From a virus (Duplodnaviria > Heunggongvirae > Uroviricota > Caudoviricetes): 4,653 nt of DNA. The position numbers were made by a program, and so were the translations under genes. The stretch lies in IMG/VR virus record IMGVR_UViG_2568526749_000005; one strand, written 5' to 3'. Positions 1 to 4,653 of the stretch are shown piece by piece (position 1 is the stretch's first letter; each line of letters begins with the position of its first letter). The notes under the pieces are model-generated. The model was not told where the DNA came from and did no database searches. It saw only the letters and a list, made by a program, of their open reading frames with translations.

Positions 1-62
1 GTTGTTCTGAGGTGAGCATATCACCTCTGTTCAGGTGGCCAAATTCAGTAAACCACTTCAAA
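1..62. repeat. Left copy of perfect 62-bp terminal inverted repeat (IR-L)
   Basis: Positions 1-62 are the exact reverse complement of 4591-4652, checked base by base; identity breaks at 63/4590. Contains an internal 7-bp stem palindrome GAGGTGA (9-15) / TCACCTC (21-27) with a 5-nt loop. Confidence 0.95.
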
Positions 63-87
63 CTTAAATGGTCAGCAGCTTTATGGA

Positions 88-336
88 TTGTTAGTTGGTG
101 GTGGCATCATAAACGCAGCAGTATTAGCGGGGATGCTAAAAACGGCTGCGTTTGTTGTTCCTGCTGCTGGTGTCGTAGGAGGAGCTGCGAAGGCATACGA
201 AAGCCCTGTTATACGAAATGCCTTGTTACGTCTGGCAAATACGCCAAAAGGTAGCACAGCATATGACAGAGCGATCAGTACGGTCACACAATCGCTCACC
301 AGAGTCGCACAGGCATCACAAAAAGAAGCTCAATAA
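88..336 (+). CDS. ORF remnant, unknown product; Gly/Ala-rich hydrophobic segment then hydrophilic tail. Probably the 3' end of a longer gene
   Basis: Frame 1 is open from 52 (just after TAA at 49-51 inside IR-L) to the stop at 334-336. No convincing start: TTG at 88 has no SD, and ATG at 133 has GGG directly abutting it. The other two overlapping ORFs (12-254 plus, 81-299 minus) look less protein-like. Confidence 0.3.
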   Translation: MLVGGGIINAAVLAGMLKTAAFVVPAAGVVGGAAKAYESPVIRNALLRLANTPKGSTAYDRAISTVTQSLTRVAQASQKEAQ

Positions 337-353
337 CTGGCAGCCACGGATGG

Positions 354-704
354 CTAATTTTTATTCTTTGATCTCGTCCACAGGTAAAGAAGAGCAATGG
401 CAAGACAGGAAACAGAGAATAGATAACCTACCTCATATGGTGCGCCAAAAAAATTAGCTATTGATACGGGCAAAAAAGCCGAAGCGATCAGAATTGAAAG
501 GCAAAAAATAAGCCCAGTAACATAGTTTATTAAACTCTTAAATGAGAAACGTTTTGCTTGATTTACGGTCTCAGCGAGTGATCGCTTAACGATGGATAAA
601 AGCAAATAGATGGCGACAGTAGCTAATGCCCCTTTCCACCAGTCTGGATATAGTTTTGCGACAATCAGCCCAAGGAAAACCATGATGACAGACTGAGCAT
701 TCAC
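354..704 (-). CDS. Small integral membrane protein (about 116 aa, 3-4 predicted TM helices); possible superinfection-exclusion-type protein
   Basis: ORF with GTG start at 702-704 preceded on the minus strand by AAGGAGG (complement of 711-717) at 6-nt spacing. The sequence is strongly hydrophobic. It is divergent from the 880-1904 operon. No family recognised. Confidence 0.5.
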   Translation of the reverse strand: MNAQSVIMVFLGLIVAKLYPDWWKGALATVAIYLLLSIVKRSLAETVNQAKRFSFKSLINYVTGLIFCLSILIASAFLPVSIANFFGAPYEVGYLFSVSCLAIALLYLWTRSKNKN

Positions 705-783
705 ACCAACCTCCTTAGTTTTGCGCAGGATACCAGATGATGTATAGGAGTGGGAGTAAAGTTAGTCGGTGATAGAACGGTGG

Positions 784-812
784 TTGCATAATGATATCAC
801 GTGACGTAAACT
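784..812 (+). promoter_or_regulatory. Putative sigma70 promoter for the 880-1904 operon
   Basis: -35 TTGCAT (784-789), 17-bp spacer, -10 TAAACT (807-812). The spacer holds a perfect 8-bp palindrome TCACGTGA (797-804). The GCATAG motif recurs downstream. Confidence 0.3.
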
Positions 813-879
813 TATTGCGCATAGCGTGTATTCAATGGATGCATAGCTATTGATAATCTCCGATAAGAAGGAGGTTTGT

Positions 880-1446
880 ATGAGCAATGAGACTAATGGG
901 ATTGATGAAATGTTTAGCTTGAACGCTGCCAAAGCTGGAGTCGCAATAGGTTTGCTATTACAGCAAGCTTCTGCGTTCAGTTGTGAGGTGGTTGTTACTG
1001 ATAACGTTCAGCACGCTTACCATCAATCCTCATTCAGCAGTGAACGGGCTAATGATGAGCTTCATGAGGCGGTGTCTTCGATTAAAGAATTGTCTCGAAT
1101 GCTGAAATACGCTTATCGTGTTCTTGCAAACGCTACCGATGAGAATGTAGACAATGTGTTGTCTATCATTGAACCAGAAAAGTCTCGATTGATAGAGCAT
1201 CAATTGAGAGGACTTGAAGGGGCAATGAAATCGGTATTCAAAGAAGCTTCTGCTGATTTTAAAGAGATCGCAAGAGATATCTATATCGTTGTTGCTGATG
1301 CCAGATCTGCCGTAACCAACCTGAATAGTCTTATTAAACAACGCTCATGTGTTCCGGTTGTTTTTGATAGTTCCGTAGATATGGCTGGTTTGCGTGCGCT
1401 TGCTGAGCACGGGACTCGTGTGTTTCACTCTGGTAACTTCCACTGA
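880..1446 (+). CDS. Hypothetical protein (188 aa), predicted mostly helical; no family recognised; upstream partner of the YafO-like gene
   Basis: ATG at 880 preceded by AGGAGG (869-874) at 5-nt spacing. The stop TGA (1444-1446) overlaps the SD of the downstream gene. Confidence 0.7.
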   Translation: MSNETNGIDEMFSLNAAKAGVAIGLLLQQASAFSCEVVVTDNVQHAYHQSSFSSERANDELHEAVSSIKELSRMLKYAYRVLANATDENVDNVLSIIEPEKSRLIEHQLRGLEGAMKSVFKEASADFKEIARDIYIVVADARSAVTNLNSLIKQRSCVPVVFDSSVDMAGLRALAEHGTRVFHSGNFH

Positions 1447-1454
1447 GGTAAAAC

Positions 1455-1904
1455 ATGCAAGTAACCGTGGAATATAATCAGGATAGTTTTGACTATTTTT
1501 TCTCCCCGGTTTTTGTTGAGTTTCCTGATTTAAAACAAACACTTGTAGATGATTTTATCATCTACAAGTCTACGGGAACGTTGCCCAGCTATTTTGGCAG
1601 AGACACCTCTTATCATCGACCTCCTGATATTGAAGATGCAGGCCTTATGCACCTTCATTTAGCAATTGGTGAAAATAAATTTGAGCCAATAAAAAATGGC
1701 ACAGATATCAGCACACCGCAAAAGTTGCAGTGGCATAAAACATCCAATACCGCTCTCGTTTATGCACAAAATCTTTTTGATGAGAACAGGTATTCATTGA
1801 TTGCTCTTTTTCATCCTGTAGCTCACATGTCTGCTAACAATCATAATAGAATGAGAGTGTTAGCAGGGTATGCGAGAGACTTTAGAAACACTATGTTTGA
1901 CTAA
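1455..1904 (+). CDS. YafO-family toxin-like protein (ribosome-dependent mRNA interferase family), 149 aa
   Basis: ATG at 1455 with GAGG (1445-1448) 6 nt upstream. Resembles my recollection of E. coli YafO in several blocks (DFIxYK..G.LP..FGRD.SY, H.HLA, LVYxQ..FDE, LIA, NN..M). Followed by an intrinsic terminator. Confidence 0.6.
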   Translation: MQVTVEYNQDSFDYFFSPVFVEFPDLKQTLVDDFIIYKSTGTLPSYFGRDTSYHRPPDIEDAGLMHLHLAIGENKFEPIKNGTDISTPQKLQWHKTSNTALVYAQNLFDENRYSLIALFHPVAHMSANNHNRMRVLAGYARDFRNTMFD

Positions 1905-1927
1905 ACCCACCGTCAGGTGGGTTTTTT
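1905..1927 (+). terminator. Rho-independent terminator after the YafO-like gene
   Basis: Stem ACCCACC (1905-1911) / GGTGGGT (1916-1922), loop GTCA, then a T-run through 1927. It lies between convergent genes (1455-1904 plus, 1953-2489 minus). Confidence 0.7.
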
Positions 1928-1952
1928 ATAAGGAGTAATCATGATTTACCCA

Positions 1953-2489
1953 TCAAACAACCCACCAGTTTGCCTGATTGGATGCCAGCCTTGCAGTTTT
2001 TATGGAATTAATTATGCCATGCTCAAGAGCCTTGTTAGCATCCAAAATGGTCGAGTCTGCTATCAGGGATGCCCACCTAATATGGGTTCCGATGTCGATA
2101 TTGAACGTCTCAACGAAGCGATCAAGATCGTTATCGAGGCATTTCCCGTACTCTCTCAATCTGGCATGGTCGGCGGCTGGGGAGGCAAAGCACCATAATA
2201 GAGGATGTAACAGGAATCTTGATAATGGGTTTGCGAAACGTTCTGAGCCAGCCAGGAAAACGATATTAGCTATGGATTCAACATTGCTTATGTTGTGAGT
2301 TCTAACGGTAACAGGGAGTGACTTAAGAAAGTTATACGCAGTAAAGCCAGCAGCAGTTTCCCCTCCCTGACTTGATATATGGATATTTAATTCAGTTGCG
2401 CCTTGAGATAATGCGGTGAGACAGTGGTTCTGAAGTTGCCCAACAGTGGCAGTGTTAACAGGGCATAAGAAATGAATTGTGTGCAGCAT
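1953..2489 (-). CDS. ClpP-fold (S14-like) serine protease homolog, 178 aa
   Basis: Aligns to the ClpP core as I recall it: IHISSQGGETAAGFTAYNFL vs [20 protein letters not shown], a Ser in NVESIAN aligned to catalytic Ser in GQAASMG, LLHP vs MIHQP, and C-terminal EHGIINSI vs EYGLVDSI. Its ATG (2487-2489) overlaps the mnt stop (2489-2491) as TAATG. Confidence 0.7.
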   Translation of the reverse strand: MLHTIHFLCPVNTATVGQLQNHCLTALSQGATELNIHISSQGGETAAGFTAYNFLKSLPVTVRTHNISNVESIANIVFLAGSERFANPLSRFLLHPLLWCFASPAADHARLREYGKCLDNDLDRFVETFNIDIGTHIRWASLIADSTILDANKALEHGIINSIKTARLASNQANWWVV

Positions 2490-2737
2490 TATTTTTCATC
2501 CTTAGCATACATGGTCTTTAGCGTCTCAAGTAGCGCCTCTTTGAATTTATCAGCTTCTTGCTGAGCAAATGACTCAACTGACTTTGGCGACCTATCTTCA
2601 TCAATCGCGGCTTGCAAAATCATGACGATCTCGGAGTTAACAGAGCGACCATTTTTTGATGCTCTGACAGCAAGAGCCTCGCGTAAAGATTCAGGGATTC
2701 TTACCGTAGTTGGAGAAATTGACACACCCTTTGCCAT
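2489..2737 (-). CDS. mnt: Mnt-like ribbon-helix-helix repressor (82 aa)
   Basis: ATG at 2735-2737 with AAGGTG SD on the minus strand. Similar to P22 Mnt (RIPESLREALAVRASKNGRSVNSEIVMILQAAI vs FRMPMEVREKLKFRAEANGRSMNSELLQIVQDAL). Divergent from arc. The ORF track extends to 2779, but that N-terminal extension has no homology. Confidence 0.75.
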   Translation of the reverse strand: MAKGVSISPTTVRIPESLREALAVRASKNGRSVNSEIVMILQAAIDEDRSPKSVESFAQQEADKFKEALLETLKTMYAKDEK

Positions 2738-2851
2738 ATAACACCTTTGGTATTCAATTTGATAGCAAAGTGTATGCAAAAAAATTTTGACTAGATATAC
2801 TCACTTTGCTATCTTTTGTATTCGAAAAGAGTTGTTTGCGTGGAGGGTAAC
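2738..2851. promoter_or_regulatory. Divergent mnt / arc-ant promoter-operator region
   Basis: Perfect 12-bp inverted-repeat arms GATAGCAAAGTG (2761-2772) and CACTTTGCTATC (2802-2813), 29 bp apart. Candidate Pant: -35 TTGACT (2787-2792), 17-bp spacer, -10 TATCTT (2810-2815), overlapped by the right arm. A TTGCAT -35 candidate for Pmnt sits on the minus strand (complement of 2774-2779). Confidence 0.55.
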
Positions 2852-3004
2852 ATGGAGAAAGAAATAAGTAAGATTTTGGTAAGGATGCCGCAGTCGTTAA
2901 AGGATGCTATCGGTAGCAGGGCAAAGGAAGAGTGCAGGTCGTTTAACTCAGAGGTTATCAAGCGCCTGATAGACAGCCTGAAGAGAGAGGGGGTAACGGT
3001 GTGA
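2852..3004 (+). CDS. arc: Arc-like ribbon-helix-helix repressor (50 aa)
   Basis: ATG at 2852 with GGAGGG SD (2842-2847). Similar to P22 Arc (VRMPQSLKDAIGSRAKEECRSFNSEVIKRLIDSLKREG vs LRWPREVLDLVRKVAEENGRSVNSEIYQRVMESFKKEG). Confidence 0.75.
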   Translation: MEKEISKILVRMPQSLKDAIGSRAKEECRSFNSEVIKRLIDSLKREGVTV

Positions 3005-3174
3005 TTCGCTTGGATGCAGTAGTCAAAGAGATTGCGATTACCATTTTAAGACCAAATTTTGTTCATGGCGAATCATTTGGCACGAACGAAAAATTGAGAA
3101 GAGAAAGAGTATTCAGTGGCAAGCGCACGTTTTCAGAAGTGATGCTTGATGCGGCAAAGAAATCAAAACAGTGA
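3001..3174 (+). CDS. Possible small ORF (57 codons) translationally coupled to arc; speculative
   Basis: GTG at 3001-3003 overlaps the arc stop (GTGTGA), with GAGGGGG (2987-2993) 7 nt upstream. Open frame to TGA at 3172-3174. No homology recognised. It overlaps the predicted sar-like terminator, so it may be non-coding. Confidence 0.15.
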
Positions 3175-3236
3175 AGCCCCAACTGCTGGAACAGTCAGGG
3201 CTTCGGTTGTCGGTAAATCCGTGGAGAAAAACCAAC
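3157..3236 (-). ncRNA. sar: Predicted sar-like antisense small RNA covering the ant ribosome-binding site
   Basis: Minus strand has an extended -10 TGcTATACT (complement of 3243-3251) placing the start near 3236. A minus-strand-specific hairpin follows (complement of 3173-3204, 13-bp stem with two G-U pairs, 6-nt loop), then the U-rich tail ACUGUUUUGAUUUCUUU (complement of 3156-3172). This matches the known P22 sar arrangement (about 69 nt, antisense to the ant start). Confidence 0.35.
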
Positions 3237-4139
3237 ATGAATAGTATAGCAATTTTAGAAGCAGTGAACACCTCTTACGTGCCATTCAACGGTCAGCAAA
3301 TTATCACCGCCATGGCTGCCGGAGTTGCATATGTTGCGATGAAGCCAATCGTTGAAAACCTCGGAATGAGCTGGTCAACGCAGCAAACAAAACTCATGAA
3401 GCAGATTAGCAAATTCAACTGTGTTCATATGAACATGGTTGCCGCTGATGGTAAGCTTCGTAAGCTACTCTGCCTTCCTTTGAAGAAGTTAAATGGATGG
3501 CTGTTCAGCATCAACCCTGAGAAAGTTCGTGCTGACATCCGCGATAAACTGATTCAGTACCAGGAAGAATGCTTTACTGTGCTGCATGACTACTGGACAA
3601 AGGGAGAGGCAGCAAATGCACGGAAGAAAACATCTGTTGATGACAGGACTCCGCTTCGTGATGCTGTAAATATGCTAGTCAGCAAAAAGCATCTAATGTA
3701 CCCAGAAGCTTATGCAATGATTCATCAGCGTTTCAATGTGGAAAGTATTGAAGAGCTTGATGCATCTCAGATACCACAAGCAGTAGAGTACATCCACAGG
3801 GTAGTGCTTGAAGGTGAGTTCATCGGCAAACAAGAGAAGAAAACCAACGAGCTTTCTGCAAAAGAAGCAAACAGCCTTGTATGGCTATGGGATTATGCCA
3901 ACCGCTCACAGGCATTATTCCGCGAACTGTATCCGGCGCTAAAACAAATTCAATCGAACTATTCCGGCAGATGTCATGACTGCGGTTATGAGTTCTCCCG
4001 TATTATCGATATGGCGAGAGACGTTTTAATCAATCACACACGAGATGTTGATATCAATGAGCCAGACGGACCAACGAATCTTTCCGCATGGATGAGACTT
4101 AAGAATAAAGAATTACCTCCTTCAGTACATAATTACTGA
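3237..4139 (+). CDS. ant: Ant-like antirepressor (300 aa)
   Basis: ATG at 3237 with GGAGA SD. The N-terminus [26 protein letters not shown] matches my recollection of P22 Ant. Position after arc is as in P22 immI. The ORF-track start at 3171 is a GTG upstream extension. Confidence 0.85.
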
Positions 4140-4157
4140 CAGATAACCAACGCAACG

Positions 4158-4181
4158 ACCCAGCTTCGGCTGGGTTTTTTT
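4158..4181 (+). terminator. Rho-independent terminator after ant
   Basis: Stem ACCCAGC (4158-4164) / GCTGGGT (4169-4175), loop TTCG, then a T-run to 4181. Confidence 0.7.
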
Positions 4182-4239
4182 ATGCCCAAAATTCACCGTG
4201 GCCATGCTGCGGCGATTCTTTGCATCTGGAGCAAATTAA

Positions 4240-4608
4240 ATGACAGACATTACAGCCAATGTGATTGTATCGATGCCTTCGCAACTCTTCACTATGGCGC
4301 GTTCTTTTAAAGCCGTAGCCAATGGCAAAATTTATATCGGTAAAATTGACACTGACCCGGTAAATCCTGAAAACCGGATTCAGGTTTATGTAGAGAACGA
4401 AGACGGCTCTCACGTTCCTGTTTCGCAACCAATCATCATTAACGCTGCTGGTTACCCTGTATATAACGGACGGATTGCCAAGTTCGTAACTGTGCAAGGC
4501 CATTCTATGGCTGTGTACGATGCGTATGGCGTACAGCAGTTCTATTTCCAGAATGTGCTGAAGTATGATCCTGATCAACTACGGCAGCAATTTGAAGTGG
4601 TTTACTGA
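4240..4608 (+). CDS. P22-type tailspike N-terminal head-binding domain only (122 aa); truncated relative to a full tailspike
   Basis: [43 protein letters not shown]...[15 protein letters not shown]...NVLKYDPDQ closely matches the P22 gp9 N-terminus. GGAG SD at 4228-4231. Similarity ends at DPDQ; the last codons FEVVY and the TGA stop (4606-4608) lie inside IR-R. Confidence 0.85.
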
Positions 4609-4653
4609 ATTTGGCCACCTGAACAGAGGTGATATGCTCACCTCAGAACAACA
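4591..4653. repeat. Right copy of the terminal inverted repeat (IR-R)
   Basis: 4591-4652 is the reverse complement of 1-62. Position 4653 (A) would pair with a T one base before the window start, so the full repeat may be 63 bp or more with 5'-TG...CA-3' ends. Same internal palindrome at 4626-4632 / 4638-4644. Confidence 0.95.

Follow-up and report, generated by a model that had tools for sequence, protein, structure and literature searches.

What is a gene for a ClpP-like protein doing in the immunity region of a P22-like prophage? We addressed this question in a 4,653-bp stretch of DNA (IMG/VR record IMGVR_UViG_2568526749_000005; hereafter the window), which corresponds to the segment between the gene 16-type ejection-protein gene and the tailspike gene of a P22-like (Lederbergvirus) Escherichia coli prophage. 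A protein of 178 aa is encoded there on the minus strand (1953–2489), directly behind mnt (2489–2737, minus strand), the gene for the Mnt-type repressor of the immI region. That this gene specifies a truncated ClpP paralog coexpressed with mnt is, in our judgment, very likely. The protein is a prophage-borne branch of the short ClpP type represented by PpClpP1 of Pseudomonas plecoglossicida. With somewhat more confidence than doubt, we favor the reading that it is a gate-less paralog of this type carried as a prophage accessory (“moron”) gene—one that is made in the lysogen and is of general benefit, rather than directed specifically at Ant or Arc. A dedicated role for the ClpP-like gene in the immunity switch is improbable.

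A preliminary description of this DNA had proposed a ClpP (S14) fold for the protein, with S49 and crotonase-type folds as the alternatives, and profile and structure searches bear the proposal out. The protein matches the Pfam CLP_protease profile PF00574, which stands for MEROPS family S14 (E = 2.2e-11; 44.4 bits against a gathering threshold of 20.2). The match starts at model position 37 of 182; thus, the N-terminal region is absent. In an AlphaFold model built from the family alignment (pLDDT 93.7, pTM 0.89), the first beta-strand begins at residue 2. By both the profile start and the modeled strand, the protein lacks the N-terminal axial loop, or gate, that engages ClpX/ClpA. The 50 Foldseek matches listed are ClpP structures only (TMq 0.75–0.94), with no S49 or crotonase family among them. 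The top match is 9UXT, which is PpClpP1 (TM 0.94, rmsd 1.6); canonical ClpPs come next, at ~20% identity and TMq values of 0.75–0.85. Sequence searches recovered 9UXT with E = 1.6e-35 over residues 3–175, compared with 2.5e-7 or weaker for every canonical ClpP. RefSeq names the protein “ATP-dependent Clp protease proteolytic subunit,” and its scores against the NCBIfam ClpP and head-protease models are all far below the cutoffs.

Is the active site intact? Ser72 (codon 2276–2274) and His95 (codon 2207–2205) correspond in alignments to the catalytic pair of 9UXT, Ser73 and His96, and to that of Mycobacterium tuberculosis ClpP1. Both residues, along with G42-G43, are invariant among 36 family members, and across 50 more distant short ClpP-like proteins (29–52% identity) the only invariant residues are G42, G43, S72, R84, F92, and H95. 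The catalytic Asp that completes the S14 triad is missing: Its canonical position holds Ser146 (codon 2054–2052), is Ser or Ala throughout the family, and is adjacent to an Asp145 that is not conserved. Thus, the Ser and His that the preliminary description had aligned with those of ClpP are kept, but the full Ser-His-Asp triad is not. These residues suggest that the protein is probably a catalyst of a Ser-His type, and we consider it rather likely to be active. Selection on the gene is apparent from a dN/dS of ~0.08 against an 80%-identical Pectobacterium ortholog (a comparison in which synonymous sites are near saturation), together with the full length of the gene in 126 of 128 E. coli carriers. 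We conclude that this is a conserved ClpP-fold protein and not a decayed copy. Two plus-strand ORFs antisense to the gene (1941–2198 and 1978–2298) were set aside, as they carry no RefSeq annotation and selection acts on the minus-strand frame.

How is the ClpP-like gene joined to mnt? The coupling junction (2487–2503, minus strand) can be read directly in the minus-strand sequence from 2504 to 2484, TAAGGATGAAAAATAATGCTG. The mnt stop codon TAA (2491–2489) and the ATG of the 178-aa ORF (2489–2487) have one base in common (TAATG), and an AAGGA Shine-Dalgarno (SD) sequence at 2503–2499 lies 9 nt upstream of the ATG, within Lys-Asp codons near the end of mnt. To place this junction among its relatives, we use a context survey of 80 viral-contig loci, comprising 46 from the E. 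coli/Pectobacterium clade and 34 from relatives at 52–75% identity. A Mnt-like gene stands directly upstream in 46/46 loci of the former clade. The TAATG junction is identical in 45 of them, including the one with an ortholog of just 80% identity, and the 46th has a junction A-run one base shorter; therefore, the junction is no chance feature. A promoter scan of the minus strand from 2737 to 2489 found no promoter-like site, and the 178-aa gene appears to be translationally coupled to mnt without a separate promoter-like site in this interval.

The overlap reported in the preliminary description therefore holds, and its upstream partner is a true Mnt ortholog. The 82-aa protein is a ribbon-helix-helix (RHH) repressor with a PF03869 Arc domain (E = 9.5e-11), and 74 of its residues align with P22 Mnt at 36% identity (E = 7e-14). 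As in P22, mnt is oriented divergently to arc, sar, and ant. At the other end of the ClpP-like gene, a G+C-rich hairpin (1903–1927) separates it from a convergent YafO-type gene; folded as the minus strand, it has an energy of −18 kcal/mol (z −2.47). The hairpin is a good intrinsic terminator on the plus strand and a weaker one, with only three U, for the mnt transcript.

The region as a whole resembles P22 immI in gene order and orientation, with the Mnt ortholog, Arc, sar RNA, and Ant all present in the window. The arc gene (2852–3004, plus strand) encodes 50 aa with a PF03869 match (E = 5.1e-12); the sar antisense RNA (3170–3236, minus strand) matches Rfam RF00262 with 83.9 bits against a gathering threshold of 43 (E = 2.8e-17); and ant (3237–4139, plus strand) encodes a 300-aa antirepressor with matches to PF10547 (E = 4.3e-45) and PF10548 (E = 2.3e-28). 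Alignment with the annotated Pant, Pmnt, and operators of P22 and epsilon34 makes the mnt–arc intergenic region ~27 nt longer than that of P22. Its control elements (2761–2822) include a Pant-like promoter on the plus strand, TTGACT-17-TATCTT (2787–2815; 9/12 consensus matches), and a perfect 12-bp inverted repeat, GATAGCAAAGTG / CACTTTGCTATC (2761–2772 and 2802–2813), which brackets the −35 and overlaps the −10 of this promoter and is a candidate operator pair of this immunity allele.

The differences from P22 lie in these operator sequences, which are not those of P22, and in the coupled ClpP paralog after mnt. In the annotated P22 record, mnt is followed by orf59a and a terminator and then by sieA with its own promoter, and the terminator annotated in epsilon34 extends into the end of mnt itself. 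A protease gene after mnt is absent from both phages, as the preliminary description had stated for canonical P22 immI. Also absent from both phages is a 57-aa ORF coupled to arc (3001–3174, plus strand; phrog_17642, E = 1.3e-43), a hypothetical protein in RefSeq. Its start shares the sequence GTGA with the stop codon of arc, and its 3′ end falls within the sar RNA; the immI region here thus has two add-on genes joined by translational coupling.

Where else is the ClpP-like gene found, and in what company? It is present in 128 of 5,426 complete E. coli genomes (2.4%), always on the chromosome, and its carriers include the type strain ATCC 11775 and K1/ST95/APEC lineages. Six phage records hold a 98%-identical protein: the P22-like phiv205-1, EC.P3, and E212 and the lambda-like PhiR12_1, _4, and _5. 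In PhiR12_1, the lambda-like record that we read, mnt and the ClpP-like gene form a cassette with arc-like and antirepressor genes between tail genes L and K. Phage E212 (4667–4981) keeps the ClpP-like ORF, unannotated in its record, and the last ~20 nt of mnt; the remainder of mnt has been lost together with arc and most of ant (window 2509–3968 is missing).

Within the mnt-linked loci, the neighbors of the ClpP-like gene vary far more than the gene itself. A 97–100% identical ClpP-like protein stands behind at least six Mnt N-terminal (DNA-binding) types, one of which is that of P22 Mnt, identical through residue 53. All of these types are joined to a conserved mnt 3′ end (...ETLKTMYGKDEK), which holds the SD. 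Because at least six N-terminal alleles are spliced onto one C-terminal segment plus the ClpP gene, we place a recombination boundary inside mnt, which is mosaic. The Ant proteins linked to it are anywhere from 40% to 100% identical, and at the Pectobacterium locus a Bro-N domain gene occupies the position of ant.

The more distant relatives live without this company. None of the 34 loci at 52–75% identity has mnt, arc, or ant within 5 kb, and the gene there has its own SD. At 21 of these 34 solo loci, it stands tail-to-tail with the end of the lysis cassette and is usually flanked by terminase genes at its far side; other placements are a myovirus-type baseplate module (Erwiniaceae) and the pL region between N and erf/ssb (a Proteus prophage). 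The gene runs on the strand opposite the surrounding lytic operons, sometimes with one small same-strand ORF—a lone antisense placement that is the usual signature of lysogen-expressed cargo. An AAA+ unfoldase gene is adjacent in none of the contexts examined, and an upstream RHH gene is not a family-wide feature, being found in none of 20 species-representative genome loci or the 34 viral loci. On a wider scale, a search of 1.84 billion representatives yielded 524 clusters at E up to 1e-10, most of them 180–190 aa long and starting at the first strand. Thus, short ClpP-like proteins form a sizeable superfamily, with Ser and His invariant, to which PpClpP1 also belongs.

PpClpP1 (9UXT) is the closest characterized relative of the 178-aa protein (PMC12900304). 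It is truncated at the N terminus by more than 15 residues, carries a Ser-His-Pro arrangement, and forms a homotetradecamer with an axial pore of 42.7 Å (PMC12900304). Its peptidase efficiency is 13-fold below that of the canonical paralog; substitution of the Ser or the His abolishes activity, and changing the Pro causes partial loss only (PMC12900304). By itself PpClpP1 does not bind ClpX, but with canonical ClpP it forms a stable hetero-tetradecamer that does and that degrades substrate faster (PMC12900304). The protein was purified after overproduction in E. coli and has been proposed as a drug target in a paper that does not discuss phages (PMC12900304).

Could PpClpP1 itself be prophage-borne? 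We rejected this possibility, as its genomic context is conserved and chromosomal. Close homologs (88% and 67% identical to PpClpP1) are chromosomal and keep the same neighbors, KGG stress-protein and DUF6555 genes, in conserved synteny, and no prophage genes or RHH gene were found in the neighborhoods of PpClpP1 homologs in Pseudomonas. PpClpP1-type genes in this genus occur in two different chromosomal neighborhoods, with small KGG-motif genes and a DUF6555 gene adjoining. The position described as Pro in PpClpP1 varies within the clade, an Azotobacter homolog having Asp-Ser there.

What, then, might the prophage protein do? In P22, mnt is expressed in lysogens and keeps ant off. On this model, a 178-aa gene joined to the mnt 3′ end would share the transcript made from the mnt promoter and depend on coupling for its translation, so that the ClpP-like protein would be made whenever Mnt is made, i.e., in the lysogen. 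With the Ser-His pair kept and the N-terminal axial loops—which form the pore gate and engage ClpX/ClpA—lost, the protein would most likely, by analogy with PpClpP1, assemble into a wide-pore tetradecamer of modest peptidase activity that does not dock an unfoldase by itself. Pairing with a host ClpP heptamer, as PpClpP1 pairs with its canonical partner, would then retune ClpXP/ClpAP proteolysis in the lysogen. Action through such mixed complexes with host ClpP, for which PpClpP1 is the analogy, is a tentative proposal that we hold to be plausible but short of probable. The fuller version, in which temperate phages of Enterobacterales bring their own gate-less ClpP ring as lysogenic cargo, and this ring joins the host ClpP heptamer as a cap or partner and redirects ClpXP/ClpAP proteolysis so as to exclude other phages or stabilize lysogeny, is doubtful.

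The benefit to the prophage would most likely be general, for example by acting on host physiology, keeping out other phages, or stabilizing lysogeny, and would probably not consist of degrading the linked Ant or Arc. Such a general role fits the mosaic evidence (i.e., swapped partners and solo copies) better than does Ant/Arc-specific degradation. The gene behaves as an accessory gene, because the same protein occurs behind all of those Mnt and diverse Ant alleles and in a lambda-like cassette, and because it has lone antisense relatives. Several points weigh against this interpretation. The protein is 40% identical to PpClpP1 and ~20% identical to E. coli ClpP, so coassembly with the latter is an extrapolation. 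The case for lysogenic expression is made by analogy with P22. In a relaxed sigma-70 scan of the mnt–arc region, no minus-strand site reached 8/12 matches, and Pmnt is therefore placed only by alignment with P22. Because the genes of the PpClpP1 clade reside on chromosomes and not in phages, the biology of that clade may not transfer. Finally, the strict linkage to mnt in the E. coli clade (46/46) could reflect a switch-related function.

Among the alternatives, the one that survives best, though we think it unlikely, makes the protein an anti-phage or superinfection-exclusion effector, a defense role that the preliminary description had also raised: a gate-less, ATPase-independent protease that digests unfolded proteins of an incoming phage or triggers abortive proteolysis. 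A wide pore like that of PpClpP1 would admit unfolded chains, and expression together with the lysogenic repressor would suit such a role. The surroundings are suggestive as well, because the P22 interval between mnt and gene 16 holds sieA, a YafO-family toxin moron adjoins the ClpP-like gene here, and the lone antisense genes of the family are typical of lysogenic-conversion or defense cargo. However, the flanking defense-like genes are not conserved (the YafO pair occurs at ~6/46 loci), and the activity of PpClpP1 is weak, at 13-fold under canonical ClpP. Furthermore, the PADLOC v2 defense-protein models gave nothing relevant for any of the ten window proteins, with no match at E up to 0.1 for the ClpP-like protein, and literature searches on 9UXT, RHH proteins and defense, phage ClpP, P22-like immI, and phiv205-1, like a search within the DefensePredictor paper, turned up no account of a ClpP tied to a prophage or to immI, in a defense role or otherwise.

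The preliminary description had tied the protease functionally to the immunity switch. On that account, it would specifically degrade Ant, Arc, or another immI protein and so add a posttranslational layer to repression by Mnt. Being made along with the maintenance repressor, it would be present where and when such a role calls for it, and its position directly after mnt in 46/46 E. coli/Pectobacterium loci is what one would expect of a switch component. Yet the protein stays near-invariant (97–100% identical) while its would-be partners do not: The linked Ant is anywhere between 40% and 100% identical or gives way to a Bro-N type gene, and the Mnt and Arc alleles vary likewise. Close family members reside in prophages without mnt, arc, or ant within 5 kb; phage E212 retains the ORF despite the loss of most of mnt, arc, and ant; and a ClpP core by itself lacks a domain for recognizing substrates. 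With at least six Mnt alleles and lone relatives, neither the link to the switch nor an Ant/Arc-specific role is supported, and we consider this explanation improbable. The preliminary description had also said that routine occurrence at this position in well-studied P22-like phages, with a known role, would speak against it; the gene is indeed routine here in E. coli P22-like prophages, but it is found there in no well-studied phage and with no known role.

Just as improbable, in our view, is a dominant-negative decoy, whose coassembly with host ClpP would lower ClpXP/ClpAP activity and thereby stabilize a Clp substrate useful to the prophage. A 178-aa protein without the N-terminal loops for unfoldase engagement and without the catalytic Asp could be such a poison subunit, and PpClpP1 does not bind ClpX. 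In the sole case tested, however, the mixed PpClpP1 complex is more active with ClpX, not less, and the invariance of Ser and His across 50 divergent relatives argues that catalysis matters.

An RHH gene followed by an overlapping second gene also recalls a type II toxin–antitoxin system, with the RHH protein as antitoxin and the ClpP-like protein as toxin. The conservation of the mnt 3′ end together with the ClpP gene, while the DNA-binding N terminus is swapped, resembles antitoxin architecture. Against this, a constant antitoxin is lacking, as there is no RHH partner in 34/34 loci of the 52–75% relatives or in any of the Pseudomonas homologs; P22 Mnt, whose C terminus is homologous to the conserved one here, works without such a partner; the SD lies in this same conserved 3′ end of mnt; and PpClpP1 could be overproduced in E. 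coli for purification. We regard this explanation as very improbable. The least credible one follows the phiv205-1 annotation in taking the protein for a head-maturation protease, here misplaced or in decay; it draws on weak matches to phrog_94 (E = 7e-21) and NF045542 (49.3 bits, far under the cutoff of 120) and was rejected on score and context, being effectively refuted by the latter: The gene is outside the head module, on the opposite strand in the interval from the gene-16 region to immI, is not fused to a scaffold or capsid domain, and is under strong purifying selection, and P22-type heads are not known to require a protease for maturation.

What surrounds the immI genes in the window? 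At the left end, a gp16-like gene is cut, so that only the C terminus of its product is encoded (88–336, plus strand). It is followed on the opposite strand by an ORF for a 116-aa multi-pass membrane protein (354–704, minus strand), in the slot that holds sieA in P22 and an hkcB-like gene in epsilon34. Profile scans of the window proteins gave no family assignment for this ORF, which is a candidate exclusion protein. Next come a gene for a 188-aa protein with no assigned function (880–1446, plus strand; phrog_8416) and, 8 nt downstream, the YafO-family toxin gene (1455–1904, plus strand; PF13957, E = 3.4e-22). The phrog_8416 protein is no recognizable antitoxin. The two genes are found together in only ~6/46 mnt-linked loci; the pair is an independent moron and is possibly a toxin–antitoxin or defense pair. 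To the right of ant, the tailspike head-binding domain is encoded at 4240–4608 (plus strand).

The window is nearly identical to the chromosome of type strain ATCC 11775 (99.98% over 57–4268 and 99.7% over 4264–4597). In the ATCC 11775 prophage, otherwise identical, an IS21-family element, ISEc12 (istA/istB; locus 11367–13947), sits near the start of the tailspike gene, at ~4264–4268 of the window, which is without ISEc12. Positions 1–62 and 4591–4652 of the window form a perfect 62-nt inverted repeat. The terminal ~70 nt are present in 4,020 of 5,426 complete E. coli genomes, at up to 24 sites per genome and on both chromosomes and plasmids; therefore, the window ends are insertion sequence (IS) ends. 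The tailspike ORF ends at 4608, right behind the head-binding domain. Together with the cut gp16-like gene, this truncation indicates that the immI segment has an IS end on either side, in inverted orientation, or else that IS copies were where the contig broke, and that the prophage is probably defective.

Alternative ClpP subunits have so far been known as host-encoded tuners of regulated proteolysis. We found no paper that describes a prophage-carried ClpP expressed with a lysogeny repressor, and neither the wiring into the Mnt operon nor the behavior as mobile lysogenic cargo is described in the literature that we found. Phage phiv205-1, which carries the gene, has been reported to increase biofilm formation and virulence, at the level of the whole prophage. 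If the protein coassembles with host ClpP, it would offer a compact and easily tested case of a prophage rewiring a central host protease. If the gate-less-ring proposal is true, it would reveal a previously unrecognized route by which prophages commandeer a host protease, one wired to Mnt in P22-like phages. The survey also gives context to PpClpP1, the sole characterized relative, as a member of a large short-ClpP superfamily.

How does the prophage protein compare with known ClpP systems? A ClpP fold and a phage origin are common to it and the ClpP-related head-maturation proteases (NF045542 and phrog_94), but the 178-aa protein scores below the family cutoff and has no scaffold or capsid domain, and its gene stands outside the morphogenesis module on the strand opposite the late genes. 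With the alternative ClpP subunits, such as P. aeruginosa ClpP2—a precedent for tuning ClpXP (PMC13056064)—and the ClpP1P2 systems of Listeria and Mycobacterium, it has in common that a second ClpP-fold subunit is present in a cell with canonical ClpP. Those subunits, however, are host encoded, of normal length, and similar in sequence only at the general ClpP level (E ~1e-7 or weaker), whereas the second subunit here is supplied by a prophage. The closest likeness is to PpClpP1, a full-length homolog (178 versus 183 aa; E = 1.6e-35, 40% identity, TM 0.94). In both proteins the N-terminal gating region is missing, Ser and His are invariant, the third residue is not Asp, and the motifs THN..VES, F.HP..W, DH, and LD.DL are shared. 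They differ in that third “triad” residue, which is Ser146 in the 178-aa protein and Pro in PpClpP1, and in genomic setting: PpClpP1 is encoded by a chromosomal gene, whereas its relative here is prophage cargo coupled to a repressor gene.

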